Source: an uncultured Brevinematales bacterium
GTDB lineage: Bacteria > Spirochaetota > Brevinematia > DTOW01
Assembly: GCA_964475465.1 (NCBI GenBank)
Contig: CAYYXA010000047.1
Location: 20,466 to 84,465, forward strand
Direction of reading: 5' to 3'
Length of the DNA stretch: 64,000 bases
The translations under genes and the position numbers were made by a program. Under the pieces are notes generated by a model. The model did no database searches and was not told the DNA's origin. It worked only from the letters and a program-made list of their open reading frames with translations. Position 1 is the first letter of the stretch, and every line of letters starts with the position of its first letter. Positions 3,373 to 60,412 of this stretch are shown here, one piece after another.

Positions 3373-4761
3373 CTAAAATACCCATTCTATACTGAATTTT
3401 GATGATACTAAATCAAAGGAGTTGTTTCCACTTATTATCCACGGAAGTCCACCATTTATGAATACATTGTTAATGAAGCTATTACTTATAACCCAATCAA
3501 GAGATAATCCCTTTATTGGCTTCACTGAAAATCCTATCGTAAAGCTGCTTATTAGTGATGAGGAGGACGATATATCCACTGTTGCTTGTCCATCTTTACC
3601 GTTCTTTGTGTAAGAATAGGAAATTTCTAGAGGATTACCGATAACACCTGTTCTGAATGTTAGCCAATCAGTAAAAGGTATTTCAGCGGATACAAAAATA
3701 GGTACTCTTGATTCTGTTGTGTATCCTTTATAATCATTATCGTTTGTGAATACTCCATTGGCAATACCTCTTGCGTATATTTCCCTACTGTAAGTTGTAG
3801 AATAGTACCCAGTACCTAAGAGAATAAGTATGCCGTTTAGTATGTGTGTATTGTAGGATGCTAGTATGGTATAAGATACTACACCGTAGTTGTTTGTAAT
3901 TTGTGTATCTTCGTCACCGGTTTCTTCGAAGTTGCCATTACCGTCCGTGTCTCTCCTTGTTATTTGTAATGAAGGTAATTGGTAGTTAAAGAAGTTTACA
4001 AATCCTTTTACGTATGTCTTATCTCCATCTATCTTTAGCTTTAATGGCACATCGAGTGAAAAGTTGAATGATGGTAGTAATGTATGATGCCTGTAGTTTA
4101 CGTAATTCTCAATGTTAGCGTCTAGGTTGCTTACAGAATTTTCAGCTGATGGTAGGTATACTTTTAATGTTGGCGATAAGTTAATGAATCCTAGATTTAT
4201 ACTGCTACCGAGTATGATTTTTATTTGTGATATTGATTCTTTGGTAATTGTTTCGGTTCTACTAACCTCATTCGAGGTTATTGTAATCGAGAAGTCTCCA
4301 GCGTAACCTATTCCTAAGTAAGGTTTCAGGAATGTTATTGCTAATATATTATTTATTCCAAGAAGTACATCGATTCTGTCTCTGGAGTAATCTGCTAGTG
4401 TAAATGATGATAATGGTGTGGTACTTGATTGTAAAAAACCACCTGGAACACCAGTTGCAATATTAGGTATGTATGATAGTTCTTGATACGGGTAGTTAAT
4501 GATTACTCCCAAATTGAGTTGTTCTATTGGTGTTGGTATGGTATACTTTGCTAGTGCATAAAAACTGGTAGGTGATGTAATGGGTTCAAAAACAACGAAG
4601 TTGCTTGTAGAATTCACATACCATGGTTCCAGCACCATGCTAAAGTAGTCATCGATTAGTGTTGATGGCACTGCTAGTCCGTTTATCCTCGATTCTGAGG
4701 CAAACACAGCAGAATTGAATACTATCATTAGTATCGCTAAAATAAAAGCTAAAATTTTCAT
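3373..4761 (-). CDS. Putative outer-membrane (toga-associated) beta-barrel protein.
   Basis: It has a signal peptide (MKILAFILAILMIVFNSAVFA) and a strong GGAGG RBS. The composition is beta-rich with alternating aromatic and polar residues and abundant Y/T/N/S. The C-terminal residue is Phe (..SIEWVF), as in OMP barrels. Confidence 0.45.
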   Translation of the reverse strand: MKILAFILAILMIVFNSAVFASESRINGLAVPSTLIDDYFSMVLEPWYVNSTSNFVVFEPITSPTSFYALAKYTIPTPIEQLNLGVIINYPYQELSYIPNIATGVPGGFLQSSTTPLSSFTLADYSRDRIDVLLGINNILAITFLKPYLGIGYAGDFSITITSNEVSRTETITKESISQIKIILGSSINLGFINLSPTLKVYLPSAENSVSNLDANIENYVNYRHHTLLPSFNFSLDVPLKLKIDGDKTYVKGFVNFFNYQLPSLQITRRDTDGNGNFEETGDEDTQITNNYGVVSYTILASYNTHILNGILILLGTGYYSTTYSREIYARGIANGVFTNDNDYKGYTTESRVPIFVSAEIPFTDWLTFRTGVIGNPLEISYSYTKNGKDGQATVDISSSSSLISSFTIGFSVKPIKGLSLDWVISNSFINNVFINGGLPWIISGNNSFDLVSSKFSIEWVF

Positions 4762-5051
4762 AAAACCCTCCTTAATTTGGATTATTAAAATTTTTTTTTA
4801 ACTTTTCAAGTTAAGTAAAGTAGGTTTTGAGTCTACGGCTATATTAGTTGATGGTTCTTTTTTATTTCCGTTTTAAGTACCAATCTTAGTAAGCAAGTTT
4901 GGTAAGTATTTTTGTTTCAGAGAGGTCTAGTTTCTCTGTGGTCTTGAGTACTTTTGTTGAAGTTATGTTTGTGAAAACTTTATTTTTTAATTTACTGAAA
5001 AAGTGAGTGTTGGTATTCATTAATTTTTGGTTAGGAGTTGGATAGTGTTAG

Positions 5052-5741
5052 CTATTTTGTAATTCTGTCTTTGGTTATTTTTAGTTCTCTTTCTACTTCT
5101 TTTCTTATCTTTTCTGCTAATGTTTTGTTATCATCGAAGAGAATACTTACGCTTGTATCTCCGTTTAATCTTTTGATAGTTCTTACTATGAGTAATCCGA
5201 TGTTTACGGCGTCTAGAAGTGCTTTGTTGTCATGTAGTGGCATTTTGGTTCTTTTTGAGTAAGCCATTGCCCATGGTGGTAAGATGGCACCCATTGAGTT
5301 TAGAGTTGCTAGTAGGTAGCTACCGGCGAAACTTGCACCGTCGTCTGCACATGTTGTAATTACGCCTACAACTTTACCTTCCATGTAGCTAGGTTCACCG
5401 AATGCTACCATGTTTTCTAAAGAAGTCATTCTATCTATTAAGTTTTTAATTACGCCTGAGGGGGCAAACCAGTATACTGGTGTTGCGAAGATTATCCCGT
5501 CAGCTTCGTAAATTTTTTCTAGTAAAAACTTTCCGTAGTCTTCAAATATGCATGGGAACTTACAGTACGGTTCTTCTTCTCTTATGCAGCCTATGCAAGG
5601 TTTTATTTCACCATCGTATAGTGAGTACCATTCCGTTTTTGCACCTTCGAATTCTGCAGCCTTCAGGGCTGCAAAAAATAGTTGAGCGGTCTCTCTATCT
5701 TTATGGGGTGAACCGAGCAAGCCTAAAACTCTTATTTCCAT
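5052..5741 (-). CDS. Iron-sulfur flavoprotein (Isf) of the NADPH-dependent FMN reductase family.
   Basis: It has a flavodoxin-like fold signature and the compact cysteine motif C-x2-C-x7-C-x3-C (CIGCIREEEPYCKFPC) characteristic of Isf proteins. Confidence 0.75.
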   Translation of the reverse strand: MEIRVLGLLGSPHKDRETAQLFFAALKAAEFEGAKTEWYSLYDGEIKPCIGCIREEEPYCKFPCIFEDYGKFLLEKIYEADGIIFATPVYWFAPSGVIKNLIDRMTSLENMVAFGEPSYMEGKVVGVITTCADDGASFAGSYLLATLNSMGAILPPWAMAYSKRTKMPLHDNKALLDAVNIGLLIVRTIKRLNGDTSVSILFDDNKTLAEKIRKEVERELKITKDRITK

Positions 5742-5789
5742 ATAACCTCCCGAATTTGAAATTTGAGTAAATGATAACGAAAGAGTTGT

Positions 5790-6824
5790 TTAACCACTAA
5801 ACATTTTTAAGAATCTTATATCGTTTTCATAAAATAGTCTTATGTCTGTTATGTTGTATTTTACCATTGTTATTCTTTCTATTCCCATACCGAAAGCAAA
5901 GCCTTTGACTTCGTTTGGATCGTAGCCGGCATTTTTGAATACCTGGGGGTGAACCATACCGCAGCCTGCTATTTCGAGCCATCCTGAGAATGAGCAAACG
6001 TTACAACCTTTTCCTCCACATCCTGGGCATGTTACAGCTAGCTCTGCACTCGGCTCTGTGAATGGAAAGTAATCTGTTCTTAGCCTTATTTTTGTCTTGG
6101 GGCCAAACATTTTCTGTGCGAACAGCAACATGACACCTTTTAGGTCTGAGAATTTTACATCTTTATCGACGTACAAACCTTCGATTTGGTGGAAGGTATG
6201 GGAATGTCTAGCATCTACTGTGTCCCTTCTGAAGCATCTTCCTGGAGCGACGACTGCCACAGGTGGCTTGAACTTTTCCATTGTTCTTATCTGAACTGGT
6301 GATGTTTGAGTTCTGAGTAAGTATCTATCTACTATTCCTTTTACATCTAAGTAAAATGAATCGTGATCGTCTCTAGCCGGATGGTTAGGTGGAATATTCA
6401 ATCTATCAAAGTTGTAAGATTCCAATTCTATTTCTGGTCCCTCAACTACACTGAATCCCATTTCTAAGAAGATATTACAGAGTTCTTCTTTAACTGCGTT
6501 TACGGGATGTTTTGTTGGTACAATGTCATAAAGCCTTGTTAGAGTTATGTCTACCCATTCCGATTTAAGCTTCTTTTCTATTTCCAGACTTTCGATTTCA
6601 TTTTGCTTTTTCTTTATTTCCTCCTCTATTTTTTCTTTTAGTTGGTTAACTTTGCTGCCAAATTCTTTTCTCTGTGATGGTTCAACTTCGCTTATTTTTT
6701 TTAAAAGGTCTTTTATGATACCTTTAGTGCCAACATACTTAGCTTTGATCTTAGCAAGTGATTCACTGTTGCTGACTTCTTTTATTTCGTTCGAAAATTC
6801 ATCTAAGATTTTATCTAGATCCAT
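5790..6824 (-). CDS. pheS: Phenylalanine--tRNA ligase alpha subunit.
   Basis: Class II aaRS motifs are present (FRRDTVDARHSHTFHQIEGL, FPFTEPSAE, GMGIERI). No pheT is adjacent. Confidence 0.9.
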   Translation of the reverse strand: MDLDKILDEFSNEIKEVSNSESLAKIKAKYVGTKGIIKDLLKKISEVEPSQRKEFGSKVNQLKEKIEEEIKKKQNEIESLEIEKKLKSEWVDITLTRLYDIVPTKHPVNAVKEELCNIFLEMGFSVVEGPEIELESYNFDRLNIPPNHPARDDHDSFYLDVKGIVDRYLLRTQTSPVQIRTMEKFKPPVAVVAPGRCFRRDTVDARHSHTFHQIEGLYVDKDVKFSDLKGVMLLFAQKMFGPKTKIRLRTDYFPFTEPSAELAVTCPGCGGKGCNVCSFSGWLEIAGCGMVHPQVFKNAGYDPNEVKGFAFGMGIERITMVKYNITDIRLFYENDIRFLKMFSG

Positions 6825-6830
6825 AGGAAA

Positions 6831-6860
6831 ATTATAAAGAATCTTTAGGGGCTTTTGGAA
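6831..6860 (-). promoter_or_regulatory. Candidate sigma-70 promoter for a leaderless pheS mRNA (TTCCAA-18-TATAAT).
   Basis: On the minus strand, TATAAT ends 6 nt before the pheS ATG. No Shine-Dalgarno sequence precedes the ATG. Confidence 0.25.
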
Positions 6861-7070
6861 AATTCGCAGAATTTTAGGTTGGTGGCATTTTTAACTTTAA
6901 CTTTGTTGCTAGATAGTATCTTTATACGTACCTTATTGAGAGCTGGGAGAAGTAAAATTTAACAGAAGGTGGTATTGATTTAATAGAGATTTATAGAAAT
7001 GTTGGGCTAGTAGAGCAAGTATTTAAGTTTTTATGGGTTATATGGTAGTAGCGAGGAAATATGCCAGTTG

Positions 7071-7110
7071 GTGCTAATTAGCACTTGTGCTAGATAGTAC
7101 TTGTGCTAAT
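7071..7110. promoter_or_regulatory. Array of five alternating hexamer half-sites with an 8-bp period: GTGCTA-at-TAGCAC-tt-GTGCTA-ga-TAGtAC-tt-GTGCTA. It is a candidate operator or complex RNA structure.
   Basis: Read directly from positions 7071-7108. It includes a perfect 14-bp palindrome GTGCTAATTAGCAC. It lies 35 bp downstream of the moxR stop and about 250 bp upstream of pheS. Confidence 0.5.
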
Positions 7111-7144
7111 GAAATTATGTTTGAGTTTGCGAATTTTTTTATTC

Positions 7145-8095
7145 TTAGATGTTGTGCTCTACAAATTTGACAACTTCGCTGATTATCTGTTCTATACTTA
7201 TGTTTTCTAGTTTGGCAGAGTAGTTTAGTATTACTCTGTGTCTTAGAGAATCTACCAATATTTCGTCTATGTGCTTTTTTTGTAATGTTTTATCTCCGTT
7301 TAGATAAGCTAGTGTCATACTTGCTTTGAGTATGTGTTGTGTTACTCTTGGTCCTGCTCCCCATTCAACGAATTCTTTTACTAAGGGTAAAGGTGAGTCA
7401 TTGGGCCTTGTGGCTCTGACGATTTTGACGATATACTCTACTATTTTATCTGGTACAAATGTTTTTCTTATTTCCTCTTTTATTCTGAAAAAATCATTTT
7501 TTGTTATTATTGGCTTTATGGAGGATAGGTCTGGTTCTACCTTACAGATTTTTAATTCTTCTTCTAGTGATGGATAATCAACGATTACCTGCATCATGAA
7601 TCTGTCCAGTTGTGCTTCTGGTAATGGGTATGTTCCCTCTTGTTCTAGTGGGTTTTGTGTTGCTATTACAAAAAACGGGTTTTCTAGTTCGTAGGTTCTA
7701 CCGAAGACTGTTACTTTTCTTTCTTGCATTGCTTCAAGCAATGCTGATTGTGTTTTTGGTGAAGCTCTGTTTATTTCGTCTGCTAGTAGGATGTTGGTGA
7801 ATACAGGGCCTTTCTGGAAAACTAGTTTTTTCTTACCGCTTTCTAAGTCTTCTTCTATTATGTCGAATCCGATGATGTCGGCAGGCATTAGGTCAGGAGT
7901 GAATTGTATTCTTCTGAATTCTAGGTCTAGCATTCTTGCTACTACGTTAGCCATCAATGTTTTTGCTAATCCTGGCACACCAACTATGAGTATATGCCCT
8001 TCGGAGAATAGGCAAGTTATTATCCTGCTTATTACTCTGTCTTGCCCTACGATTACTTTACTTTTCTCTTTGTTTATTTCTTCGAATAAAGACAT
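7145..8095 (-). CDS. MoxR-family AAA+ ATPase.
   Basis: Walker A (GVPGLAKT), Walker B (LLADEINRASPKTQSALLEAMQE) and the MoxR C-terminal helical region are present. Confidence 0.85.
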   Translation of the reverse strand: MSLFEEINKEKSKVIVGQDRVISRIITCLFSEGHILIVGVPGLAKTLMANVVARMLDLEFRRIQFTPDLMPADIIGFDIIEEDLESGKKKLVFQKGPVFTNILLADEINRASPKTQSALLEAMQERKVTVFGRTYELENPFFVIATQNPLEQEGTYPLPEAQLDRFMMQVIVDYPSLEEELKICKVEPDLSSIKPIITKNDFFRIKEEIRKTFVPDKIVEYIVKIVRATRPNDSPLPLVKEFVEWGAGPRVTQHILKASMTLAYLNGDKTLQKKHIDEILVDSLRHRVILNYSAKLENISIEQIISEVVKFVEHNI

Positions 8096-8132
8096 TCAGA
8101 GATGGTAAAAAATAGTTTTTGTTTTTTTCAAA

Positions 8133-8163
8133 TTGAACTTTTCGTAGGTTCCTTATTTATAAT
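8133..8163 (+). promoter_or_regulatory. Candidate sigma-70 promoter for secDF (TTGAAC followed by TTTATA/TATAAT).
   Basis: TTGAAC is at 8133-8138 and TATAAT at 8158-8163. Spacing is 17-19 nt depending on which -10 register is chosen. Confidence 0.3.
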
Positions 8164-8193
8164 TGGTTCAGAATTTTAATTTTGGAGTAAGTT

Positions 8194-9735
8194 ATGAGTT
8201 GGTGGAGATTTATAACGATTCTCATTGTTATACTCGTTGGTATTTTGTTGCTTAAGCCTACTTATGAGTGGTATTTTGTTGTACCTGAAAGTGATAAAGC
8301 TCTTTTGTCTTTACCTGCTGAAGAGGTTAGTAAGCTTTCACCTGAGGTAAAGAAGAGGTATATGGAAGTAAAACAACTTAGGAATAGTACTGTTTTGGGA
8401 CTTGGTTTGGACTTGAGAGGGGGGGTGTATATTACTCTTGAACCTGATCCTGTCGACATGACTAACTTTTTGCTTGAAAAGTATGAGGGTGATATCGAAA
8501 AAGTCAGAGCAAATTATGCTGAGGAGTTAGAGGGCCAAGTTAATGTGATGTTAGAAGTTTTGAGGAACAGGCTTGATCAGTTTGGTGTTAGTGAGCCTGT
8601 TATAAGGAGAGAGGGGGGCAATAAAATTTCTGTTGAGCTTCCTGGAGTTTCTAGTCCTGCACAAGCAAGGGAAGCTGTTAGTAAAGCTGGAAAGCTAGAA
8701 TTTAAGTTTGTTGATGATGAATTGATGAAAGGAGTGGACAGAAGGTTCCTGAATGAGTACGGGTATATAAGGGATGTTAATGAGTTTTTATCAAACTATT
8801 CGTTGCCTGCTGATGATGAGATATTGGGTTATTATGAATCTGACGAATATGGTATTCCTGTTTTAAAGGGTTTCATTGTAGTTAAGAAAGAAGCAGTTCT
8901 TGATGGTAGTTTCTTAGCTGATGCTAGACCTGGTCAGGACCAATTTGGTAGGCCTGTTGTTGAGTTTTCTCTGACTTTGGAAGGAGCTGATATATTTGCT
9001 GACATAACTAAAAACAATGTTGGTAGAAGGTTAGCAATTGTGCTTGATGGAAAGGTTAGGTCTGCTCCTGTTATACAGACGGAGATACTTGGGGGTAGGG
9101 GTCAGATAACCGGCAGGTTCACTCCGGAAGAGGTCAATACTTTGGTTTCTATACTTAAATCTGGTGCTTTAAGTGTTAAACTCAAAGAACTTGAGGTTAG
9201 GGCTATAGGTCCTTCGTTAGGTTCTGATAGTATTAATCTAGGTATGAAGGCATCGTTAATTGGTATGTTGCTTGTTTTTGCATTTGCTACTTTCTACTAC
9301 AAAACTTTTGGCTTCATAACTACTGTTTCACTAATATTAAACTTATTCCTTACGTTGGCAGGTTTAGCAATGTTCAGAGCTACTCTTACTTTACCGGGTA
9401 TAGCTGGGCTTGCTCTAACTATAGGTATGGCTATAGATGCTAATGTCTTGCAGTTTGAGAGAATAAAAGAGGAGTTAAGAAATGGTAGAGATCTTATTTC
9501 GGCTATGAAGATAGGTTTTGATAGGGCTTTTATTACAATTATTGATACACACGTTACTGTCATTATATCGTCGTTTATATTGTCACAGTTTGGATATGGG
9601 CCTATAAAGGGATTCGGTACAACATTGCTTATTGGTATAATAGTGTCTTTATTTACATCTGTGTTTGTTGTTAGATTCTTTGCTGAGTTTGTAGTACAGA
9701 AGCTGAAGTTAAGGAATTTATCTTTTCTTATCTAG
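8194..9735 (+). CDS. secD: Protein translocase subunit SecD.
   Basis: It has a GGAG RBS, an N-terminal TM helix, a large periplasmic domain and a C-terminal 6-TM SecD/SecF fold (..AIDANVLQFERIKEE..). Confidence 0.9.
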   Translation: MSWWRFITILIVILVGILLLKPTYEWYFVVPESDKALLSLPAEEVSKLSPEVKKRYMEVKQLRNSTVLGLGLDLRGGVYITLEPDPVDMTNFLLEKYEGDIEKVRANYAEELEGQVNVMLEVLRNRLDQFGVSEPVIRREGGNKISVELPGVSSPAQAREAVSKAGKLEFKFVDDELMKGVDRRFLNEYGYIRDVNEFLSNYSLPADDEILGYYESDEYGIPVLKGFIVVKKEAVLDGSFLADARPGQDQFGRPVVEFSLTLEGADIFADITKNNVGRRLAIVLDGKVRSAPVIQTEILGGRGQITGRFTPEEVNTLVSILKSGALSVKLKELEVRAIGPSLGSDSINLGMKASLIGMLLVFAFATFYYKTFGFITTVSLILNLFLTLAGLAMFRATLTLPGIAGLALTIGMAIDANVLQFERIKEELRNGRDLISAMKIGFDRAFITIIDTHVTVIISSFILSQFGYGPIKGFGTTLLIGIIVSLFTSVFVVRFFAEFVVQKLKLRNLSFLI

Positions 9736-9743
9736 GAGGGTGT

Positions 9744-10661
9744 ATGTATAGTTTCCTCGAGCCTATTAGGAAGCTTGATTTTGTAAAGCATAGGTTTTAC
9801 TTTATTGTGTTATCGGTAGTAATAGTTGCGGTGGGTATTGTTTTGTTTTTCGTAAAAGGTGGTTTTAAACAGAGCATTGATTTTGCTGGTGGTACAAGGT
9901 TGGAGGTTAAAATAGAAGATGGTGATGCAACAATAGATGTTGTTAGGAGGGTTATATCCTCAACTGGTGTAACGAAGGATGTCACTTATGTGGGTGCCCC
10001 TTCAGAAAGGATATTCTTGATAAGTATCGGAGTAAAAGAAAATTACGAGCAAGATGTAGAAAAAGTGAAGCAAGCTTTAGTTAAAGAATTTGGAGACAAA
10101 GTTATTTTGAGAGGTGAGAACACTGTTGGCCCTAGGTTGAGTCAGGAATTTTTTAGAAATGCTATGCTTTTGTCATTTATAGTTGGCCTTTTAATACTAG
10201 GATACATTTGGGTTAGGTTTGATTTGGTATTTGGTATTGGTGCTATTGTTGCATTGATACATGACTTGCTAATTGTTCTTACCGCGGTTTTAATATTTGA
10301 TATCGAGATGGATATAAGTATTATTGCTGCTATATTGACGATTCTTGGATACTCTGTTACGGACACGGTTGTTGTCTATGATAGAATAAGGGAAAACCTT
10401 GAGCTATCCAAGAGTGCGGAGATAGAGTATATTGTTAATACTAGCATAAGGCAAGTTATAGTTAGGTCTATATTGACATCCTTTACGACACTTCTTATAG
10501 TTGTTTCGTTTATAATCTGGGGGCCAGAAAACTTGAAAGGTTTTGCTGCATCTCTCTTGGTAGGTATAATAAGTGGTACTTATTCGTCTTTGTTTATTGC
10601 TTCTCCTGTTGTAATAGAACTTGAGAAGAGGAGATTGTTAGCTAAGGAGAAGGCTATATAA
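9744..10661 (+). CDS. secF: Protein translocase subunit SecF.
   Basis: It has a GGAGGG RBS, lies immediately after secD, and has the SecF membrane domain signature. Confidence 0.9.
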   Translation: MYSFLEPIRKLDFVKHRFYFIVLSVVIVAVGIVLFFVKGGFKQSIDFAGGTRLEVKIEDGDATIDVVRRVISSTGVTKDVTYVGAPSERIFLISIGVKENYEQDVEKVKQALVKEFGDKVILRGENTVGPRLSQEFFRNAMLLSFIVGLLILGYIWVRFDLVFGIGAIVALIHDLLIVLTAVLIFDIEMDISIIAAILTILGYSVTDTVVVYDRIRENLELSKSAEIEYIVNTSIRQVIVRSILTSFTTLLIVVSFIIWGPENLKGFAASLLVGIISGTYSSLFIASPVVIELEKRRLLAKEKAI

Positions 10662-11386
10662 TGGCTGTTCTCAGAGCTGAGAACATATATAAAAGGTATG
10701 GCAAGAGGTATGTTGTTAATGGTATTTCGCTTCTACTAAATAAGGGGGAAATTGTTGGGTTTTTGGGGCCAAACGGTGCTGGTAAGACTACAACATTTTA
10801 TATAATTGCTGGCATCGTTGATCCTGATGGTGGTAATGTTTTCTTTGATGATATTAACATCACTAGGTGGCCCATATACAAGCGTGCTAATCTAGGTATA
10901 GGTTATTTGCCACAGGAGCATTCGATATTTAGGAAACTGACAGTTGAGCAAAACGTTATGGCTGTTCTGGAGTTAAAAGGATTTTATGGAAAGGAGCTGG
11001 TGAGGAGGACTTTAGAGGTTCTCGAATATATGGGGTTAATGCACGTTAGGAAAACCGTTGCTGCGGCTCTGTCAGGAGGTGAAAAAAGAAGATTGGAGGT
11101 TGCTAGAATGATAGCGCTTGAACCTAATTTTCTACTTCTTGATGAACCTTTTACAGGGGTTGATCCTATAGCCATAAACGATATACAGAAAATTGTAAAG
11201 ATGTTGAAAGAAGACAAAGGCATCGGGGTTTTGATAACTGACCACAACGTTAGAGAGACTTTGAAGATAGTTGATAGAGCTTACATAATACATCATGGGC
11301 AGATCCTTGTAGAAGGTGATGCTGATACACTGATAAATGATCCAAAAGCGAAGGAAATATATTTAGGCCACGATTTCGAAATTTAG
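10661..11386 (+). CDS. lptB: LptB-like ABC transporter ATP-binding protein (lipopolysaccharide export ATPase family).
   Basis: Walker A (GPNGAGKTTTF), the ABC signature (LSGGEKRRLE) and Walker B (LLLDEPF) are present. The LptB-type C-terminus (KEIYLGHDFEI) and the LGIGYLPQE motif are also present. Confidence 0.8.
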   Translation: MAVLRAENIYKRYGKRYVVNGISLLLNKGEIVGFLGPNGAGKTTTFYIIAGIVDPDGGNVFFDDINITRWPIYKRANLGIGYLPQEHSIFRKLTVEQNVMAVLELKGFYGKELVRRTLEVLEYMGLMHVRKTVAAALSGGEKRRLEVARMIALEPNFLLLDEPFTGVDPIAINDIQKIVKMLKEDKGIGVLITDHNVRETLKIVDRAYIIHHGQILVEGDADTLINDPKAKEIYLGHDFEI

Positions 11387-11543
11387 CGATGAATTAGTTT
11401 TGTTTCAATTAAGTAGCTTGTTGTTTGGGAATGATCATCTTAAGGGTATGAGTTGGGTTTTTGAATTTTGTGGGAGTATGGAATAAAGATATGGAACCTC
11501 TCTGAAAATGTGATAAGTGTTTTTTAGGGAAATTCTAGGTAAT

Positions 11544-12897
<1,354 letters not shown>

Positions 12898-36337: not shown

Positions 36338-36350
36338 ATTGGTATAAGTT

Positions 36351-36425
36351 GGGGTTGTAGCTCAGCCTGGTCAGAGCGCTGGTCTGTCACACCAGAGGTC
36401 GCGGGTTCAAGTCCCGTCAACCCCG
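36351..36425 (+). tRNA. tRNA-Asp (anticodon GTC).
   Basis: It folds into a cloverleaf: acceptor GGGGTTG/CAACCCC, D-arm GCTC..GAGC, anticodon stem CTGGT/ACCAG with loop CTGTCAC, and a T-arm GCGGGTTCAAGTCCCGT. No CCA is encoded. Confidence 0.9.
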
Positions 36426-36447
36426 AATTTTATGTTGCCTAACTTTT

Positions 36448-46340: not shown

Positions 46341-46401
46341 TATGATTAGAATAATCCAAGTTAGCTAAAAATTAGCTAAAAAGAACCGATAGATTAAGAA
46401 G

Positions 46402-47124
46402 ATGGTAGAGCCAATACAATCAGTGCAAATGAGGATAAGGGAAATATACGGAAGGATTGGTGAGATAAACAAAAAGGTAGCCAATATCTATGCTACATTG
46501 AATGTTAATTCTGCTCAGAGAATCTATAATACAAGCTTACAACAAAAAGAGGTAGCTTCTCAGAAAGAAGCGAAGACATTCCAGGAGATCCTAAATGAAG
46601 CTATGCAAAGCCAGAAAGAGGAGAGACGAAACAATATAGATATTATTTCAAGGCCGAACGAGAGCTTAAGAGATGTAATTCTTGAAGGTACTCAAAACAG
46701 GACTGTGCAAGGTAACAGCGAGATAAGCCAAAAGTTTGATGAAATAATAGAAGAAGCCTCCCAAAGATACAATATACCGAAGGAACTAATAAAGGCGGTC
46801 ATAAAGGCAGAATCGAATTTTAATCCTTTTGCTATATCTCCTAAGAATGCCATTGGGTTAATGCAACTGCTTCCATCGACAGCAAAGGAGATGGGGGTAG
46901 AGGATATATTCGATCCATATCAGAACATAATGGGAGGGACTAAGTACCTGAGAACGTTGTTAGATAAGTATAACAATAATTTATTTTTAGCACTGGCTTC
47001 CTATAACGCAGGTCCGGGACGGGTTGATTCATCTGGTGGAATACCAAGAATAGAAGAAACCAAAGATTATATTGAAAGAGTTATAAGGTACTACAAAGAA
47101 TATTCTGAAAGGATAACAAGATGA
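46402..47124 (+). CDS. Lytic transglycosylase (SLT domain) protein with an N-terminal coiled or charged region and no obvious signal peptide.
   Basis: SLT motifs are present (AVIKAESNFNP..IGLMQL, ASYNAGPGRV). Confidence 0.6.
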   Translation: MVEPIQSVQMRIREIYGRIGEINKKVANIYATLNVNSAQRIYNTSLQQKEVASQKEAKTFQEILNEAMQSQKEERRNNIDIISRPNESLRDVILEGTQNRTVQGNSEISQKFDEIIEEASQRYNIPKELIKAVIKAESNFNPFAISPKNAIGLMQLLPSTAKEMGVEDIFDPYQNIMGGTKYLRTLLDKYNNNLFLALASYNAGPGRVDSSGGIPRIEETKDYIERVIRYYKEYSERITR

Positions 47125-47471
47125 CAACTTATGAGATACTCAATAACGAAATACTTCTAATAAAGCCCAAAGATGTAATAACTGTGAGTGAAGCTTTATC
47201 TTTCTCTAAGTTAGTAAATCAGATAGTTTCGAGCAAATCTGTAAAATACGTAATCATTGACTTTCAGAATACTACAGTTGTATCGAGTGCTTTCTTAAGT
47301 GCTTTACTTAGTTTGAAGAAGAGGCTTCTTGAATTGGGCGGTGAAGTAGTCCTAGTTTCATTGAACGAGAAGATAAGGAAAATATTTGAATTAGCCGAAA
47401 TAATACACCTATTTAAAACTTTCCCTTCAATAGAAGAAGGGAAGAATTATTTGTTGGGAAAGAATATCTAG
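47121..47471 (+). CDS. STAS-domain anti-sigma-factor antagonist (SpoIIAA-like).
   Basis: It has the STAS fold pattern (VIIDFQNTTVVSSAFLSALLSL). It overlaps the upstream stop. Confidence 0.7.
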   Translation: MTTYEILNNEILLIKPKDVITVSEALSFSKLVNQIVSSKSVKYVIIDFQNTTVVSSAFLSALLSLKKRLLELGGEVVLVSLNEKIRKIFELAEIIHLFKTFPSIEEGKNYLLGKNI

Positions 47472-55270: not shown

Positions 55271-55609
55271 ATGGAAGTAACGAGAAGGGAAATAGGGGAT
55301 GTTGTCGTCTTTGATGTTGTTGGCGAAATAGATCTTTACAATGCTCCTACGATAAAGGAAATGGTAAGACAAGAGATTGAAAAAGGTAAAGTAAATATTG
55401 TTGTAAATTTAGATAAAGTTAGTTATATAGATTCTTCCGGTATAGGTGTCTTAATATCTAGTTTGTCTAACCTAAAGAAGGTTGGAGGAGGATTGAAGTT
55501 AGCTAATGTTTATGCTTCTGTTAGGAAAGTCTTTGAGTTAACGAAATTGACGGGTTTCTTTGATATATACGATTCTGTTGAGAATGCGGTAAATGCTTTT
55601 AATCAGTAA
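55271..55609 (+). CDS. STAS-domain anti-sigma-factor antagonist.
   Basis: It has the STAS fold and a phosphorylatable Ser region (IDSSGIGVLI). Confidence 0.75.
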   Translation: MEVTRREIGDVVVFDVVGEIDLYNAPTIKEMVRQEIEKGKVNIVVNLDKVSYIDSSGIGVLISSLSNLKKVGGGLKLANVYASVRKVFELTKLTGFFDIYDSVENAVNAFNQ

Positions 55610-55628: not shown

Positions 55629-55658
55629 AAGGTAAAAAGGGAGGTTGAACCTCCTTTA
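55629..55658 (-). terminator. Rho-independent terminator for flgC (minus-strand RNA AAAGGAGG-uucaa-CCUCCCUUU followed by UUUUAC).
   Basis: The hairpin abuts the flgC stop codon. The U-run is present only in the minus orientation. Confidence 0.5.
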
Positions 55659-56111
55659 TCTTCCTATCTGTAGCGATTTTTCGAACATTTGTCTTGTTGA
55701 GTTTATAACTGTTACGTTCGCTTCGTATGCTCTTGATGCTGATATGAGGTCTACCATTTCTTGGACTATATTGACGTTTGGATAGAGAACGTAACCTTTG
55801 TATTTCCCGTGCTTTATGGCGTCGGGGTGTGAAGGATCGTATACTAACCTCGGGGGAGAGTTGTCTTTCTCTACTCTTACAACTTTTACACCTGCTCCTT
55901 GGCCTGGCTGGAGTGCTTCAGGTAAAAGGTGGCTTTTGAATTTTAGGCTATCATCTCTTGGCATAAGGACAACTCTTTGCCTTTGGTAAGGACCACCTTC
56001 TGTCGTTCTGGTTGTTTCAGCGTTTGCTATGTTGTTTGCTATGACGTCCAACCTAAATCTTTGAGCTGTTAATCCGCTACCACCAATGTTAAGAGCTGTG
56101 AACATCCCCAT
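55656..56111 (-). CDS. flgC: Flagellar basal-body rod protein FlgC.
   Basis: It has the rod-family N-terminus (LDVIANNIANAETTRT) and C-terminus. No flgB is adjacent. Confidence 0.85.
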   Translation of the reverse strand: MGMFTALNIGGSGLTAQRFRLDVIANNIANAETTRTTEGGPYQRQRVVLMPRDDSLKFKSHLLPEALQPGQGAGVKVVRVEKDNSPPRLVYDPSHPDAIKHGKYKGYVLYPNVNIVQEMVDLISASRAYEANVTVINSTRQMFEKSLQIGR

Positions 56112-56120
56112 ACACTATTA

Positions 56121-56147
56121 TGATCGGCTAGAAGAAAAAGGTTTTTA
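56121..56147 (-). promoter_or_regulatory. Near-consensus sigma-28 (FliA) promoter TAAA-N15-GCCGATcA immediately upstream of flgC.
   Basis: On the minus strand, CTAAA-aacctttttcttcta-GCCGATCA reads directly into the flgC start. The -35 element overlaps the stop codon of the upstream cvpA-like gene. Confidence 0.4.
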
Positions 56148-56609
56148 GAAGATTTTTATTCCTATCACTAGCTTAAGGATATTTTCGAATATCCTTAAGA
56201 AACTTGATGAATCTAGGATATAATATAGCTGTGGTATGAAGCCGGAAAATATCACAAGGTATCCTATTATCAATATACCATTCATTAAGAACTGAAGTAG
56301 TCCTATTGTTCTGTCTACTATCTTGGGTTCTATATCTCCAACGAGGTTATATATTTTTTCTGCTAAGGGTTTAAAAACAAAAAACGTTACCACTGAGGTG
56401 ATGGCTAGTATACCTAATTCTATGAGTATTAGGTATTCCTTTATGAGAAAGTGTTTGAAAATTCTGTAGACTATTGCGTTTATTAGTGTTATTACAAAAA
56501 AGTAAAATGTTATTCTTAGGCTTTTTCTGAATCCTGACCAGAAGCCAAAGAGAAGCAAGGCGATGTATAGAAGAGCTCCAAGTACATCTAAGGTTTTTGA
56601 CAACCACAT
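56145..56609 (-). CDS. CvpA-like small integral membrane protein.
   Basis: It has four predicted TM helices and is CvpA-like in size and N-terminus. The assignment is tentative. Confidence 0.4.
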   Translation of the reverse strand: MWLSKTLDVLGALLYIALLLFGFWSGFRKSLRITFYFFVITLINAIVYRIFKHFLIKEYLILIELGILAITSVVTFFVFKPLAEKIYNLVGDIEPKIVDRTIGLLQFLMNGILIIGYLVIFSGFIPQLYYILDSSSFLRIFENILKLVIGIKIF

Positions 56610-56850
56610 ACGTAAGAATTCTAAATAGGTGCGTTTGTTCCTTTCTAGTTGGTAAGATTGCGCTAAGAGAATGTTCTTAGGTGTCTTGTTCGGTATGTTT
56701 TGTATTAGAGTTACTTGATTTAACTAATATCTGGGACTTTGAGTGAGAATGAAAAATTCCTGTTGGGCAAGAAATGCTATTAGGCATATTGCCTTGGGAA
56801 ATTACTAAAAGAAAATTGTTTCTTAACGAAATTAATAATGGAGGGTTTGT

Positions 56851-57324
56851 ATGATAGTGAACAACAACTATAGTCTTGATCTGGTTTCTCGAAGGCAGCA
56901 AGCGGTAGATGCTGCTACGAAGGAGGAGATAAGAAAGTTAAATGAGATGCTTAGAGAAAATCATCAAGGTAGTAAGCTTGAGTTGGCTGAAACTGATTTC
57001 CTTAAAATATTGACTACTCAGCTAAAAACCCAAGATCCTACAAACCCTGTGGATGACAAAAATTTCATTACTCAGATGGCTCAGTTAACTTCGATAAGAG
57101 AGTTGAATAATCTTAACAGAAATATTCTGTCACTTGTTTCTCAAAACTCTATAAATAGTTCTTTGTCAATGATATCCAAGACTATAAGTTGGATAGATAA
57201 CCAAACGGGTCAGTCCATGTCTGATAAGGTTGTGGGTGTGAGGCTTAATGAGAACGGAGAAGTTTTCTTGAAGACTTCTAAGGGTGTCTTTGTTTCAATT
57301 AAGGACGTTATAGAGGTGGAGTGA
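56851..57324 (+). CDS. flgD: Flagellar hook assembly/capping protein FlgD.
   Basis: The FlgD N-domain is present (TDFLKILTTQLKTQDPTNPVDDKNFITQMAQLTSI). The RBS is GGAGGG. Confidence 0.7.
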   Translation: MIVNNNYSLDLVSRRQQAVDAATKEEIRKLNEMLRENHQGSKLELAETDFLKILTTQLKTQDPTNPVDDKNFITQMAQLTSIRELNNLNRNILSLVSQNSINSSLSMISKTISWIDNQTGQSMSDKVVGVRLNENGEVFLKTSKGVFVSIKDVIEVE

Positions 57325-58016
57325 TGGTTTTGGGGATTGTGCAGGCTAGAATTGATTCAGGTAGATTCCCGCTAAAAATTTTTGCCAAGTTTTCAGATGG
57401 TACTTCCTTGCTTGAAAGAGTGATAAAACAAGTTTTGAGTAGCAAACTTATTGATAGAGTGGCTATAGCAACTAATTATTTTTCGTATGGGATGATAAAA
57501 GATTTTGTAAATGAATTTGGTTTTGATATTGATGTTAAGGTTGGGGATGATGAAGATGTTTTGGGTAGGTTTGTAAAATGTGTTTTATCGTATGATATCA
57601 ATTTTGAGCATGTTGTCAGAATAACTGCTGATAATCCTCTTACGTGTCCTAATGCTATTGATGAAGCTATAAAGTTGCACGTAGAGAAGAAGGCAGATTT
57701 GACACACTTTCTTGGTATGCCTTTGGGGACTGGCGTTGAGGTTATAAAGGCATCTGTTCTCTTCGAAATAAACGAATTGGCATTTGAGAAATACGACAGG
57801 GAGCACGTTACACCTTACCTGTATAAGCATAAAAACTTGTATAGGGTGTTAGAACCTTTTTATAAGGATGGGGTAGATTATCAAGGTATAAGGGTCACTA
57901 TAGATTATCCTGTTGATTTGGAGAGTGTTGATAGATTACTAAGTAAACTTAATTACAAGATTCCTGTTTATGTTGGAGATGTTATAGGGGTCATAGAGGA
58001 ATTAGCTAGGGTTTGA
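57321..58016 (+). CDS. CMP-sugar (acylneuraminate/pseudaminic-type) cytidylyltransferase-family protein (SpsF/PseF-like).
   Basis: The N-terminal motif GIVQARIDSGRFPLKIF (Ax-ARxxSxRxPxK) is present. The ATG overlaps the flgD stop. Confidence 0.6.
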   Translation: MMVLGIVQARIDSGRFPLKIFAKFSDGTSLLERVIKQVLSSKLIDRVAIATNYFSYGMIKDFVNEFGFDIDVKVGDDEDVLGRFVKCVLSYDINFEHVVRITADNPLTCPNAIDEAIKLHVEKKADLTHFLGMPLGTGVEVIKASVLFEINELAFEKYDREHVTPYLYKHKNLYRVLEPFYKDGVDYQGIRVTIDYPVDLESVDRLLSKLNYKIPVYVGDVIGVIEELARV

Positions 58017-58459
58017 TGGATTTTATAATTGTTGTTGGTAATTTGGTTTTTTTGTTGGTTTTTGCTATTTTTGACGTTTTCAATAGGCGAGTTGTTCCGA
58101 ATTATTTGACAATTATTTATGTTTTTCTGTCGGTTATTAGTATTCCCTTTAGGAAGGATCTTTTACCTTATGTTTTGGGATTTGGGGAATTCTGCTTGAT
58201 TTTGTTAATAGTGTGGGGATATTCCAAGTTCAGAGGGGTTAGGTTAGTTAATGTCATTGGTGGGGCTGATGTAAAGGTTTTCTTTGGGTTGGCTGTCAAT
58301 TCTGGAATTTTTGTTTTTAACTATACAGTTCTGATTTCATCGTTTCTGGGAATCGTTTTTGGGCTGGCGTTTAAGAAGAGGAAAATCCCGTTTTTACCTT
58401 TTTTGTTCTTTGGTTACCTACTTGCTATCGCTTTTCTTTTTCTGAAAGAAAGGTTTTAG
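58013..58459 (+). CDS. Prepilin (type IV leader) peptidase-like membrane protein (CpaA/TadV-like, A24 family).
   Basis: The candidate catalytic Asp residues lie in FDVFNRRVVPN and IGGADVKVF. It has 4-5 TM helices. It overlaps the upstream stop. Confidence 0.5.
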   Translation: MMDFIIVVGNLVFLLVFAIFDVFNRRVVPNYLTIIYVFLSVISIPFRKDLLPYVLGFGEFCLILLIVWGYSKFRGVRLVNVIGGADVKVFFGLAVNSGIFVFNYTVLISSFLGIVFGLAFKKRKIPFLPFLFFGYLLAIAFLFLKERF

Positions 58460-59254
58460 TTTTTCTCTGAGCAATTCTAAAGCTCTTGCGTGTAACTGTG
58501 ATACTCTTGATTCAGTAACGTTTAATATTGCTCCTATTTCCTTTAATGTCAGTTCTTCGTGGTAGTAGAGCATTATGACTTGTAGTTCTTTTTCAGGTAG
58601 CTCTTTTATTGCTTCTTTTATCTTTTCTATTATTTCGTTCTTTATTGCTAATGTTTCCGGGTTTGCGTCTTCGTATGGTACTTCCAGGACATCTTCCAGG
58701 GTTATTGAGTTTTCAGAGGATGAGGAGTCGGGGAAGATAACATTATCCAATGAACTTATGTAGTTCTTTGCATTCTGGAGTTTCAGAGTATTTTCTTTCA
58801 GTTCTTCCAAGGAGAAACCTAATCTTTCGGCTATCATTTCTTCGGTTGGTTTCTCACCAAGTTCATATTGAAGTTCTGATACTACCTTTTGGTATTCCTT
58901 CTCTATCTGTCTTACTGAGCGTGGTATCCAATCCATTTCTCTTAGTTTGTCGTATATTGCTCCCCTTATTCTTATTATTGCGTAGGTTTTGAATTTTACC
59001 CCCCTGTCTGGGTCAAATCTTTCAATAGCATCTATTAGTCCTTCTATACCCCAGCCTATGAGGTCGTCGTAGTCGGATTGGTTGCTAACGTATACGTTCA
59101 TGTTAGACACTACGTATCTAACTAAGGGAGCATACTTTTCTATGAAAAAGTTTCTAATTTTTATGTCCTTGGTTTTCTTATATTCCTTCCACTTTCTATC
59201 TTCTTCTTCTGGATCTAACTCATATTTTGAAAGGTCTATGTTAGGTCCCCTCAC
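58418..59254 (-). CDS. fliA: Flagellar RNA polymerase sigma factor FliA (sigma-28).
   Basis: Sigma-70 regions 2, 3 and 4 are present (YAPLVRYVVSNM, region 4 LTLKEIGAILNVTESRVSQL). A GTG start is suggested. Confidence 0.8.
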   Translation of the reverse strand: MRGPNIDLSKYELDPEEEDRKWKEYKKTKDIKIRNFFIEKYAPLVRYVVSNMNVYVSNQSDYDDLIGWGIEGLIDAIERFDPDRGVKFKTYAIIRIRGAIYDKLREMDWIPRSVRQIEKEYQKVVSELQYELGEKPTEEMIAERLGFSLEELKENTLKLQNAKNYISSLDNVIFPDSSSSENSITLEDVLEVPYEDANPETLAIKNEIIEKIKEAIKELPEKELQVIMLYYHEELTLKEIGAILNVTESRVSQLHARALELLREKLKPFFQKKKSDSK

Positions 59255-59311
59255 ACATCCCTCACTCTGTGATTAATTATTTTTATAACTCTGCTGTTTA
59301 TTCAAATTTTT

Positions 59312-60412
59312 TTATCTTATTTTCAAGCTTGCTAGTGCTATCATTGCAAAGGTTATGCCCATTATCCAAAATCTTATGAGTACTTGCGTTTCGCTCCATC
59401 CGCTTAACTCGAAGTGGTGGTGTAGTGGAGCCATTTTGAATATCCTTTTGCCTTTTGTTATTTTGAAGTATATTATTTGCAACGCGACGGAAAGTGTTTC
59501 TAGGACAAATACCAATCCTACTATGATGAGAAGTAATTCTTGTTTTACAAGTATTGCCATTGCTCCTAATGTAGCTCCTAGTGATAAAGCTCCCGTATCT
59601 CCCATGAATATCTGGGCAGGGTGAGCGTTGTACCATAGGAATCCACCAAGAGCACCTACCATACTGCCTGCAATTATTGTTATTTCTCCTACCTTATCGA
59701 TGTAAGGTATGAGTAAGTAATTTGATATTATTATGTTTCCTGCCAGGTAGGCAAATACGCCGTATACGGCAAAGGCTATACTGGATAAACCTGTTGCTAA
59801 CCCATCTATTCCATCTGTCAGGTTTACTCCGTTTGATGCTCCCGATATTACTAAGATGTAGAATATAAACATTGCAAGTGGGGGTAATGTTATCACTAGT
59901 TCATTTGTGTAGGGGATATATACTTTTGTAAAATATTCTTTAAAGGTTGGGAGGAAATATATTCCTAATATGAATATTAGTGAAAAGATGATTTGAAGTG
60001 AGTATTTTTGAATCATTGATAATCCGTTGTGGCTTTTCCTTATTTTTTTTAGATAATCATCTAGGAATCCGATGAATGCAAACGATAGCATTACGAAGAG
60101 CACCAGAGGTATATAATGGTTGTTGAACCTACACCATAGTACGGATGATAGTGCTGCTATGGGTATGAACAAAGCACCGCCCATTGTTGGGGTACCTTGT
60201 TTCGATAGATGTGAGGAAGGCCCAAATTCCCTTTCAATTTGTTTGAATTGCTTCTCTTTCATGAATTTTATGAAGTATGGCATTAGTATGAGAACTAAGA
60301 GAAAAGAGGTGAACATTGCACCTAGAGTTCTGAAGGTTATGTACCTAAAGAGGTTGAATCCGAAGAAAAATTCTCTCAGAGGGAAAAATATTTCGTACAG
60401 CATGTTATCCAC
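59312..60412 (-). CDS. mraY: Phospho-N-acetylmuramoyl-pentapeptide transferase.
   Basis: MraY motifs are present (NLTDGIDGLA, HHHFE). Confidence 0.9.
   Translation of the reverse strand: MDNMLYEIFFPLREFFFGFNLFRYITFRTLGAMFTSFLLVLILMPYFIKFMKEKQFKQIEREFGPSSHLSKQGTPTMGGALFIPIAALSSVLWCRFNNHYIPLVLFVMLSFAFIGFLDDYLKKIRKSHNGLSMIQKYSLQIIFSLIFILGIYFLPTFKEYFTKVYIPYTNELVITLPPLAMFIFYILVISGASNGVNLTDGIDGLATGLSSIAFAVYGVFAYLAGNIIISNYLLIPYIDKVGEITIIAGSMVGALGGFLWYNAHPAQIFMGDTGALSLGATLGAMAILVKQELLLIIVGLVFVLETLSVALQIIYFKITKGKRIFKMAPLHHHFELSGWSETQVLIRFWIMGITFAMIALASLKIR

Follow-up and report, generated by a model that had tools for sequence, protein, structure and literature searches.

The glycosylation of flagellins with nonulosonic acids is already known. 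In loci of the Helicobacter, Campylobacter, Caulobacter and Aeromonas type, it is required for filament assembly. The synthetase that provides the cytidine monophosphate (CMP)-activated nonulosonic acid, PseF or NeuA-FlmD in Helicobacter and Campylobacter and part of the flm loci in Caulobacter and Aeromonas, is tied to flagellar genes and to the flagellar regulon (PMC4065374, PMC9481697). Treponema denticola, a member of the Spirochaetota with periplasmic flagella, modifies its FlaB flagellin with an O-linked 2-methoxy-4,5,6-trihydroxy-hexanoyl nonulosonic acid, which is reported to be essential for filament assembly (Kurniyati 2017, as cited in PMC13439194). Here, we describe a related arrangement in a stretch of 64,000 nucleotides (nt), hereafter the window, from an uncultured Brevinematales bacterium of the same phylum (GenBank assembly GCA_964475465.1, contig CAYYXA010000047.1, positions 20,466 to 84,465). 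The locus consists of flgD, for the hook-cap protein, of a gene for an SpsF-type cytidylyltransferase (CT), and of a gene for a small membrane aspartic peptidase (A24).

SpsF of Bacillus subtilis, the namesake of the CT family, is encoded in the sps operon and is considered the putative synthetase of CMP-legionaminic acid, and the genetic data indicate that it is needed for the transfer of legionaminic acid, not for its synthesis (PMC7439481). CT resembles SpsF (COG1861) in its PF02348 domain and in the signatures QAR..S.R.P.K and T(A/G)DNP. A further likeness to the sps operon is that a PseG/SpsG-like gene comes after CT in other spirochaetes. In contrast to SpsF, the CT of the window stands apart from the other pathway genes, in a flagellar operon, and its target would be the flagella and not the spore crust. 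With the Helicobacter, Campylobacter, Caulobacter and Aeromonas loci the window shares a predicted CMP-nonulosonic acid synthetase that is associated with a flagellar gene. However, CT is not a PseF equivalog, a synthase, Maf or FlmG gene is not found nearby, and the coupling is to the hook-stage gene flgD instead of flagellin genes.

We propose that flgD, CT and A24 would form one operon, translationally coupled at both junctions and located behind a sigma-28-type motif. CT would condense cytidine triphosphate (CTP) with a nonulosonic acid of the pseudaminic or legionaminic type to a CMP-activated donor. The donor would be used to O-glycosylate proteins of the periplasmic flagellum, most likely the FlaB flagellins, as in T. 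denticola. The position of CT after flgD and the FliA-type promoter would tie the supply of the donor to flagellar assembly. A24 would be a prepilin-peptidase-like orphan, catalytically competent by its motifs, which joined the operon only in the genus-level group around the window. We lean, by a modest degree, towards the view that the product of CT is a CMP-nonulosonic acid destined for flagellar glycosylation and that CT is co-expressed with flgD, a grading that covers the flagellar target only.

Organization of the locus

The flgD gene (56851-57324, + strand) encodes a short, 157 amino acid (aa) hook-cap or hook assembly protein that matches PF03963 (1.4e-17, 64.1 bits, cutoff 27). The best NCBIfam model for it is the equivalog NF007197, with a score of 95.8 bits that is below the cutoff of 129 and an alignment that is nearly full-length (FlgD residues 30-156 on model positions 10-135 of 138). 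By these profile matches, the protein is a divergent short FlgD. It shares 69-93% identity with its orthologues. CT (57324-58016, + strand, PF02348) and A24 (58016-58459, + strand, PF01478) follow immediately. On the opposite strand, the gene for the sigma factor FliA (sigma-28; 58418-59254, - strand) is convergent to the flgD operon. The FliA protein has the Sigma70 r2, r3 and r4 domains and scores 244 bits against TIGR02479 (FliA_WhiG), for a cutoff of 189.6.

An earlier note on this DNA, made from the letters alone, had described three open reading frames (ORFs) that overlap by 4 nt each, with ATGA at the junctions. The three ORFs agree with the coordinates and with the Pfam assignments, but the overlaps have to be corrected. 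The flgD/CT junction reads GAG-GTG-GAG-TGA-TGG (57321-57326) and the CT/A24 junction reads GGT-TTG-ATG-G (58013-58018). At both junctions, the ATG starts give a 1-nt overlap (TGATG), whereas the alternative starts, GTG or TTG, give an overlap of 4 nt (GTGA or TTGA). The ATG starts are the ones used by the gene callers, and they are matched by the N-termini of the orthologues. With these starts, CT has 230 aa (231 aa from GTG 57321) and A24 has 147 aa (148 aa from TTG 58013). A literal ATGA junction is found only in one orthologue, at the locus L007. A purine-rich ribosome-binding stretch precedes each of the three starts. It takes the form of a Shine-Dalgarno sequence GGAGGG 6 nt upstream of the flgD start, and of GAGGTGGAG, located inside the 3' end of flgD, for CT.

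The convergent fliA gene was correctly noted before, and the 3' coding ends of A24 and fliA even overlap, by 42 nt (58418-58459). The tail-to-tail overlap, of 42-44 nt, is also kept in L010 and L007. No intrinsic terminators were predicted in the region 56000-59600, and thus none between the A24 and fliA units. If the flgD operon is FliA-dependent and if there is read-through, an antisense RNA to fliA would be made, which could act as a negative feedback.

The cytidylyltransferase

CT matches PF02348 with 94.2 bits (1.3e-26, cutoff 22.6), residues 5-206 being aligned to positions 2-205 of the 217 in the profile. Across 24 homologues there is no variation at Q7, A8, R9, S12, R14, K18, D103, N104, P105, E160, H161 or D194. 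The protein carries an N-terminal loop (Q/P)AR-x2-S-x-R-x3-K and a D-x-P motif, which we take, from the KdsB and NeuA families, to be the catalytic CTP-binding and metal-CTP motifs. The sequence ARIDSGRFPLK, quoted in the earlier note, is present in the translation, as are the two A24 sequences FDVFNRRVVPN and GGADVKVF.

The AlphaFold2 (AF2) model of CT has a predicted local distance difference test (pLDDT) score of 94.7. A Foldseek search with this model returned 6oew, a Leptospira borgpetersenii cytidylyltransferase, as the nearest solved structure (template modelling (TM) score 0.88, root mean square deviation 1.8 A), followed by synthetases of CMP-Kdo (3-deoxy-D-manno-octulosonic acid; KdsB; TM about 0.70) and of CMP-N-acetylneuraminic acid (CMP-Neu5Ac; NeuA; TM about 0.63). 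The best sequence match in the PDB is also 6oew (1e-12), a structural genomics entry with no assigned function, which is only 24% identical to CT and is not an orthologue. According to the model, CT has the fold of the CMP-Kdo/CMP-NeuAc synthetase superfamily.

The earlier note had called the protein SpsF/PseF-type and had considered that it might turn out to belong to a non-sugar family. The family, the intact motifs and the fold identify it as an SpsF-type cytidylyltransferase for CMP-sugars of the ulosonic or nonulosonic acid kind, and the JGI annotation of close homologues is likewise SpsF. A strict assignment as PseF does not hold: the score against the PseF equivalog TIGR03584 is 13.7 bits, for a cutoff of 205.7. 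The KdsB models are not matched at their cutoff either (best 45.7 bits, cutoff 193, N-terminal 125 residues only). The CT homologue in the clostridial (non-spirochaete) locus L054 (Asaccharospora, 32% identical) is encoded inside a complete pseudaminic acid (Pse) cluster, composed of genes for a DegT aminotransferase, CT, PseG (167.5 bits, cutoff 153.55), NeuB and a GNAT protein. As this protein fails the PseF model as well (24.2 bits), the CT lineage seems to be analogous to canonical PseF without belonging to it.

Conservation of the flgD-CT pair

The closest homologues of the locus are found in uncultured Brevinematia and Brevinematales (Spirochaetota). In these, flgD and CT do not come apart; unlinked orthologues would have refuted the reading of the earlier note. 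CT directly follows flgD in all seven related Brevinematia genomes that were compared, at a gap of at most 18 nt, with CT identities of 54-100% and with outer flanks that vary. The window (CT 100%) and L010/L092 (88%) have a divergent CvpA-like gene upstream of flgD, and A24 and then convergent fliA downstream of CT. The downstream order is the same in L007/L008 (73%), where a MoxR ATPase gene lies upstream of flgD. L011 (60%) begins at a contig end with only the C-terminus of flgD, and an unannotated 388-aa ORF on the opposite strand comes after CT. In the three most distant loci, the flanks are a gene for a 525-aa protein of no family and a phosphate ATP-binding cassette (ABC) transporter (L003, 57%), a methyltransferase gene and a gene for an fn3 protein (L004/L012, 56%), and a gene for a 547-aa protein of no family and a Zn/Mn ABC transporter on the opposite strand (L005, 54%), in each case upstream of flgD and downstream of CT, respectively. 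The flgD-CT pair is the sole constant unit amid changing flanks, and this favours the idea that the pair is under selection.

The usual gene order, flgD followed by flgE, is replaced by flgD followed by CT in 7 of the 7 genomes of the clade. In the window, flgE does not follow flgD, as stated before, and the Pfam scan of ORFs of at least 110 aa did not find it elsewhere in the window.

Two candidate identities among the flanking genes were rejected. The 525-547 aa proteins encoded upstream of flgD in L003 and L005 do not qualify as FliK, since they have no Pfam match even at E 0.5 and since their conserved sequence looks enzyme-like to us. The aminotransferase encoded upstream in L012 is a general class I/II enzyme (PF00155, 5e-67) and not a sugar aminotransferase. 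The fn3 protein encoded after CT in L012 (6662-8017) is matched in the window by a homologue with 41% identity (1905-3308, - strand), about 54 kb from CT, adjoining the gene for a 462-aa protein without family match (3373-4761).

A sigma-28-type motif upstream of flgD

A candidate for a sigma-28 (FliA)-type promoter is located at 56805-56832 (+ strand) and reads CTAAA-AGAAAATTGTTTCTT-AACGAAAT, or TAAA-N15-aaCGAAAt, with its 3' end 19 nt before the ATG of flgD. Compared to the sigma-28 consensus TAAA-N15-GCCGATAA, the sequence TAAA-N15-AACGAAAT has the right spacing and the CGA core, but its -10 element departs from the consensus at four positions out of eight. In six genomes, the motif ACTAAA(A/G)G...(A/C)CGAAA is the sole conserved block in the otherwise unalignable DNA upstream of flgD, with ACTAAA, one G, one T and CGAAA invariant. 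In the window as a whole, the pattern matches three times, for 0.6 matches expected by chance. For comparison, the T. denticola promoter PflaB2 has TTAA and CCGATAA, versus TAAA and the CGA core in the window.

Motifs of this kind are also found in front of other genes. One is located directly before fliS in L007. In the window, a near-canonical CTAAA-N17-CCGATA (46365-46391, + strand) ends 11 nt before a gene for a protein with an SLT lytic transglycosylase domain (46402-47124), which overlaps a gene for a STAS (anti-sigma-antagonist-type) protein (47121-47471). As a possible member of the FliA regulon, the SLT protein may cut peptidoglycan in association with the flagellum. In a second Brevinematia subgroup, L017 and L026 have a sigma-28-like (T/A)TAAGTTAT...TCCGAAAA before the gene that precedes the genes for a glycosyltransferase A (GT-A)-like protein and CT, and L030 has a near-match. 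As these genomes are closely related, the conservation of the motif among them is weak evidence. In this region (4395-6642 in L017, and in L026 and L030), the preceding gene encodes a protein of about 205 aa with a signal-peptide-like N-terminus, possibly an outer-membrane protein.

The cytidylyltransferase genes of other spirochaetes

The genomic context of CT was analyzed by clustering the neighbour genes of 80 CT loci from species-representative genomes. The CT subfamily is nearly restricted to the Spirochaetota. In the Spirochaetales, the gene order is spiro-SPASM, GT-A-like, CT, a fusion of a PseG-like protein with an O-methyltransferase, ATP-grasp ligase and Amidase_3. The spiro-SPASM protein (TIGR04321, 521 bits) combines an NTP-transferase-like domain with radical S-adenosylmethionine (SAM) and SPASM domains; the term had no match in the literature that was searched. 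The GT-A-like protein, of about 320 aa, has remote similarity to GT-A glycosyltransferases (6p61, E 2.4e-4), and the fusion protein, of 610 aa, comprises a PseG-like domain, a zinc ribbon and an O-methyltransferase. L059 (Marispirochaeta, 3547-11664) and about 40 similar loci represent a conserved uncharacterised cluster of the Spirochaetales, which continues with genes for Amidase_3 and a GerM-like protein. Leptospirales-like metagenome-assembled genomes have spiro-SPASM, CT and the PseG-like protein, and the more distant Brevinematales (CT 35-39% identical) have the GT-A-like gene and then CT. Together with the Pse cluster of L054, these contexts place the CT subfamily in nonulosonic acid metabolism.

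Other genes of the pathway were found next to flagellar genes in the clade of the window. Directly upstream of fliS in L007, 4 kb from the flgD-CT-A24 genes, lies a gene for a PseG-like protein of 338 aa that carries a zinc ribbon at its C-terminus. This protein matches the profile of the spirochaete PseG-like proteins with an E-value of 7e-66, and TIGR03590 with 4e-11. In the same region (10905-12835, - strand; fliS at 10369-10827), the PseG-like gene is preceded by a gene for a 305-aa, strongly hydrophobic, polytopic-looking protein without family match. In L012, the product of the methyltransferase gene directly upstream of flgD-CT is a homologue of the methyltransferase portion of the fusion protein found in the Spirochaetales (E 6e-84). 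With CT, PseG-like and methyltransferase genes beside flgD or fliS, the ancestral cluster looks dispersed in the clade of the window. A tblastn search of the window with 15 clusters of neighbour genes, including the GT-A-like, PseG/methyltransferase and amidase clusters, retrieved no partner besides CT, and the GT-A-like protein was not found by profile and tblastn searches in the window or in the loci of its clade that were compared.

The position of CT directly after flgD, in the usual place of flgE, could also be explained if the donor served to glycosylate the hook or the rod (FlgE, or FlgD itself) and not the flagellin. This position is the one point in favour. The PseG-like partner adjoins the gene for the flagellin chaperone FliS, which points to flagellin, and we are not aware of an earlier case of a glycosylated hook in spirochaetes. 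The flagellar glycan that has been documented in a spirochaete is on FlaB (PMC13439194). We therefore consider a hook or rod target to be most improbable, although nothing in the locus itself would separate hook and flagellin, and the preference for the latter draws on a precedent that, within spirochaetes, exists for flagellin only.

The main rival to a role in flagellar glycosylation is that CT serves a non-flagellar glycoconjugate, such as a lipo-oligosaccharide, a surface protein or a cell-wall polymer, and that it follows flgD only through the packing of mixed operons in a compact, shuffled genome. About 65 other spirochaete CT loci are without flagellar neighbours, and the Spirochaetales cluster continues with the Amidase_3 cell-wall amidase and the GerM-like protein. 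In the window, flagellar and chemotaxis genes occur singly, scattered among housekeeping genes, in contrast to the large flagellar operons of well-studied spirochaetes. Moreover, the structural matches of CT that come after 6oew are CMP-Kdo synthetases. However, the KdsB models stay at or below 45.7 bits, for a cutoff of 193, and cover the N-terminal half only. Mere hitch-hiking would also not predict that flgD and CT have stayed together in 7 of 7 genomes despite changing flanks, that two more genes of the pathway independently adjoin fliS and flgD, and that a sigma-28-type motif is conserved upstream of flgD. In view of these data, we regard a non-flagellar role of CT as unlikely, and continue to favour flagellar glycosylation.

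The A24 peptidase

A24 matches PF01478 over residues 11-118 (8.3e-10, 39.5 bits, cutoff 26.5). The aspartates of the active site, D20 (in FDVFNRRVVPN) and D85 (in G82-G83-x-D85, GGADVK), are invariant in 14 homologues. An A24 profile matches the archaeal preflagellin peptidase FlaK (3s0x, 1.4e-4), with the aspartate motifs aligned to QDFRSREIEDY and GGGDGK of FlaK. A24 is thus like CpaA/TadV and FlaK/PibD in its size of about 150 aa, in the motifs D...R..PN and GG(A/G)D.K and in having no N-terminal methyltransferase domain. It is unlike them in that pilus, secretion or archaellum genes and a class III substrate are not found nearby, and in belonging to an extremely small and divergent lineage. 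Two word-indexed searches and a metagenome scan retrieved 6 matches in 5.8e9 proteins, and an exhaustive HMMER search retrieved 19 representatives in 1.84e9.

As suggested in the earlier note, the structure of the peptidase was predicted, but no usable fold resulted. The AF2 model, built from an alignment of 6 sequences, is too poor for use (pLDDT 47.7, predicted TM score 0.33). It has 6-7 predicted helices, and at this low confidence a short unstructured stretch parts the sixth and seventh of them.

A24 with a convergent, overlapping fliA is found only in the lineages of the window, L010/L092 and L007. The flgD-CT units of L003, L004/L012 and L005 lack A24, in a comparison that did not extend to L011. 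Distant homologues of A24, 30-37% identical and at least one of them named from Brevinematia, sit at other loci. No flagellar genes adjoin those in L097 and L100. L099, a Brevinematia contig from the sample of L005, encodes a 30%-identical A24 homologue that is divergent to a gene for a 419-aa flgL-like protein with Flagellin_N, Flagellin_IN and Flagellin_C domains (6473-8450).

Substrates of the prepilin type were searched for in the window and nine related loci, with regular expressions that describe the N-termini of class III, type IV pilin and Flp-type proteins. The scans gave no matches, or only internal membrane segments. Genes of the tad, pil, gsp or archaellum systems were not present in six contexts (the window, and 8 kb to either side in L007, L092, L097, L099 and L100), and Pfam scans did not detect pilus or secretion genes in the window.

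These data bear on the suggestion, made in the earlier note, of a flagellin or hook glycosylation and processing module. Such a module would consist of CT and A24, and A24 would cleave a component of the flagellum or periplasmic flagellum, as FlaK does in archaea. It is true that A24 is coupled to CT in three species-level genomes, in the same sigma-28-type unit, that its catalytic aspartates are invariant, that FlaK is its only sequence relative in the PDB, and that the homologue in L099 is the divergent neighbour of a flgL-like gene. Yet A24 is missing from the flgD-CT unit in the other lineages compared, two of its homologues lack flagellar neighbours, an ORF with a class III signal peptide was not found in the window or related loci, and the structure model is unusable. 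In addition, the flagellar type III system exports the axial proteins of the flagellum uncleaved, and FlaA, the sheath protein, leaves via the Sec pathway. We thus consider a module for both modification and processing very unlikely. Of the earlier proposals, glycosylation is supported by the comparative context and by the conserved link of flgD and CT, and the identification of an A24-like aspartic peptidase is borne out by PF01478 and both aspartates. The processing part is not supported, as no substrate was found in the window or related loci and as A24 accompanies flgD-CT in the nearest relatives alone. To judge from its motifs, A24 is probably an active peptidase, and an orphan; a flagellar role is possible but unsupported.

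Other genes of the window

The Pfam analysis of about 55 ORFs assigned most of the window to housekeeping genes, for Mfd, AlaRS, SecY, SecDF, enolase and others. Besides these, only flgC, fliA, a CheA fragment, the SLT protein and two STAS proteins were found. The CheA fragment (20-1111, + strand) is the C-terminal part of a CheA-type kinase, with HATPase_c and CheW domains. The gene extends beyond the start of the window, so that its listed ORF opens with an internal TTG. The flgC gene (55656-56111, - strand) follows the gene for the CvpA-like membrane protein at a distance of 33 nt (the pair spans 55656-56609). It is solitary, without flgB or fliE, and has a STAS-domain gene (55271-55609, + strand) alongside. 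Rfam and tRNA scans of the window found only a tRNA-Asp (36350-36426).

Discussion

Several observations weigh against a role of CT in flagellar glycosylation. In most spirochaetes, the neighbours of the CT cluster are housekeeping and not flagellar genes, and in most of those checked, the cluster lacks a preceding sigma-28-like motif. In the window, the flgD promoter is a candidate defined by a motif match. The scores of CT against the PseF and KdsB equivalogs miss the cutoffs by such a wide margin that these profiles leave its sugar undefined, and the A24 gene is left unexplained. To our knowledge, flagellin glycosylation has not been demonstrated in any member of the Brevinematia.

The absence of partner genes points in the same direction. 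Genes for pseudaminic or legionaminic acid synthesis, which the earlier note had suggested to look for, were not found in the 64-kb window, where Pfam (ORFs of at least 110 aa), tblastn and profile searches did not detect NeuB/PseI, PseB/C/H, PseG or a Maf- or FlmG-type glycosyltransferase. Flagellin genes were not found in the window either. The search was more successful in relatives, with the full Pse cluster of L054 and the PseG-like gene of L007.

The PseG-like, O-methyltransferase, ATP-grasp, radical SAM and CT enzymes of the Spirochaetales cluster would suit an acylated, methoxylated sugar like the glycan of T. denticola. It is conceivable, though rather doubtful, that the pathway for the acylated, methoxylated flagellin glycan is encoded by this cluster, which occurs across the spirochaetes and consists of spiro-SPASM, GT-A-like, CT, PseG-methyltransferase and ATP-grasp genes. 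If this is true, its first genomic tie to flagella would lie in the clade of the window, where CT follows flgD, the PseG-like gene precedes fliS and the methyltransferase gene precedes flgD.

For A24, a more far-reaching reading is that the peptidase is a flagellum-dedicated bacterial counterpart of FlaK, expressed from a sigma-28-type flgD operon, and that it cleaves a component of the periplasmic flagellum or of the glycosylation pathway. We consider this highly improbable. The locus nevertheless draws attention to a tiny and divergent family of orphan A24 peptidases in the Brevinematia.

The locus shows a system of a known kind in an unusual arrangement, and not a new system. What it adds is that, throughout the clade, the step of sugar activation is coupled to the hook-cap gene, behind a FliA-type motif, with a second gene of the pathway next to fliS and a third next to flgD. 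Its value lies mainly in the lead that it provides into an uncharacterised but conserved, spirochaete-wide gene cluster.

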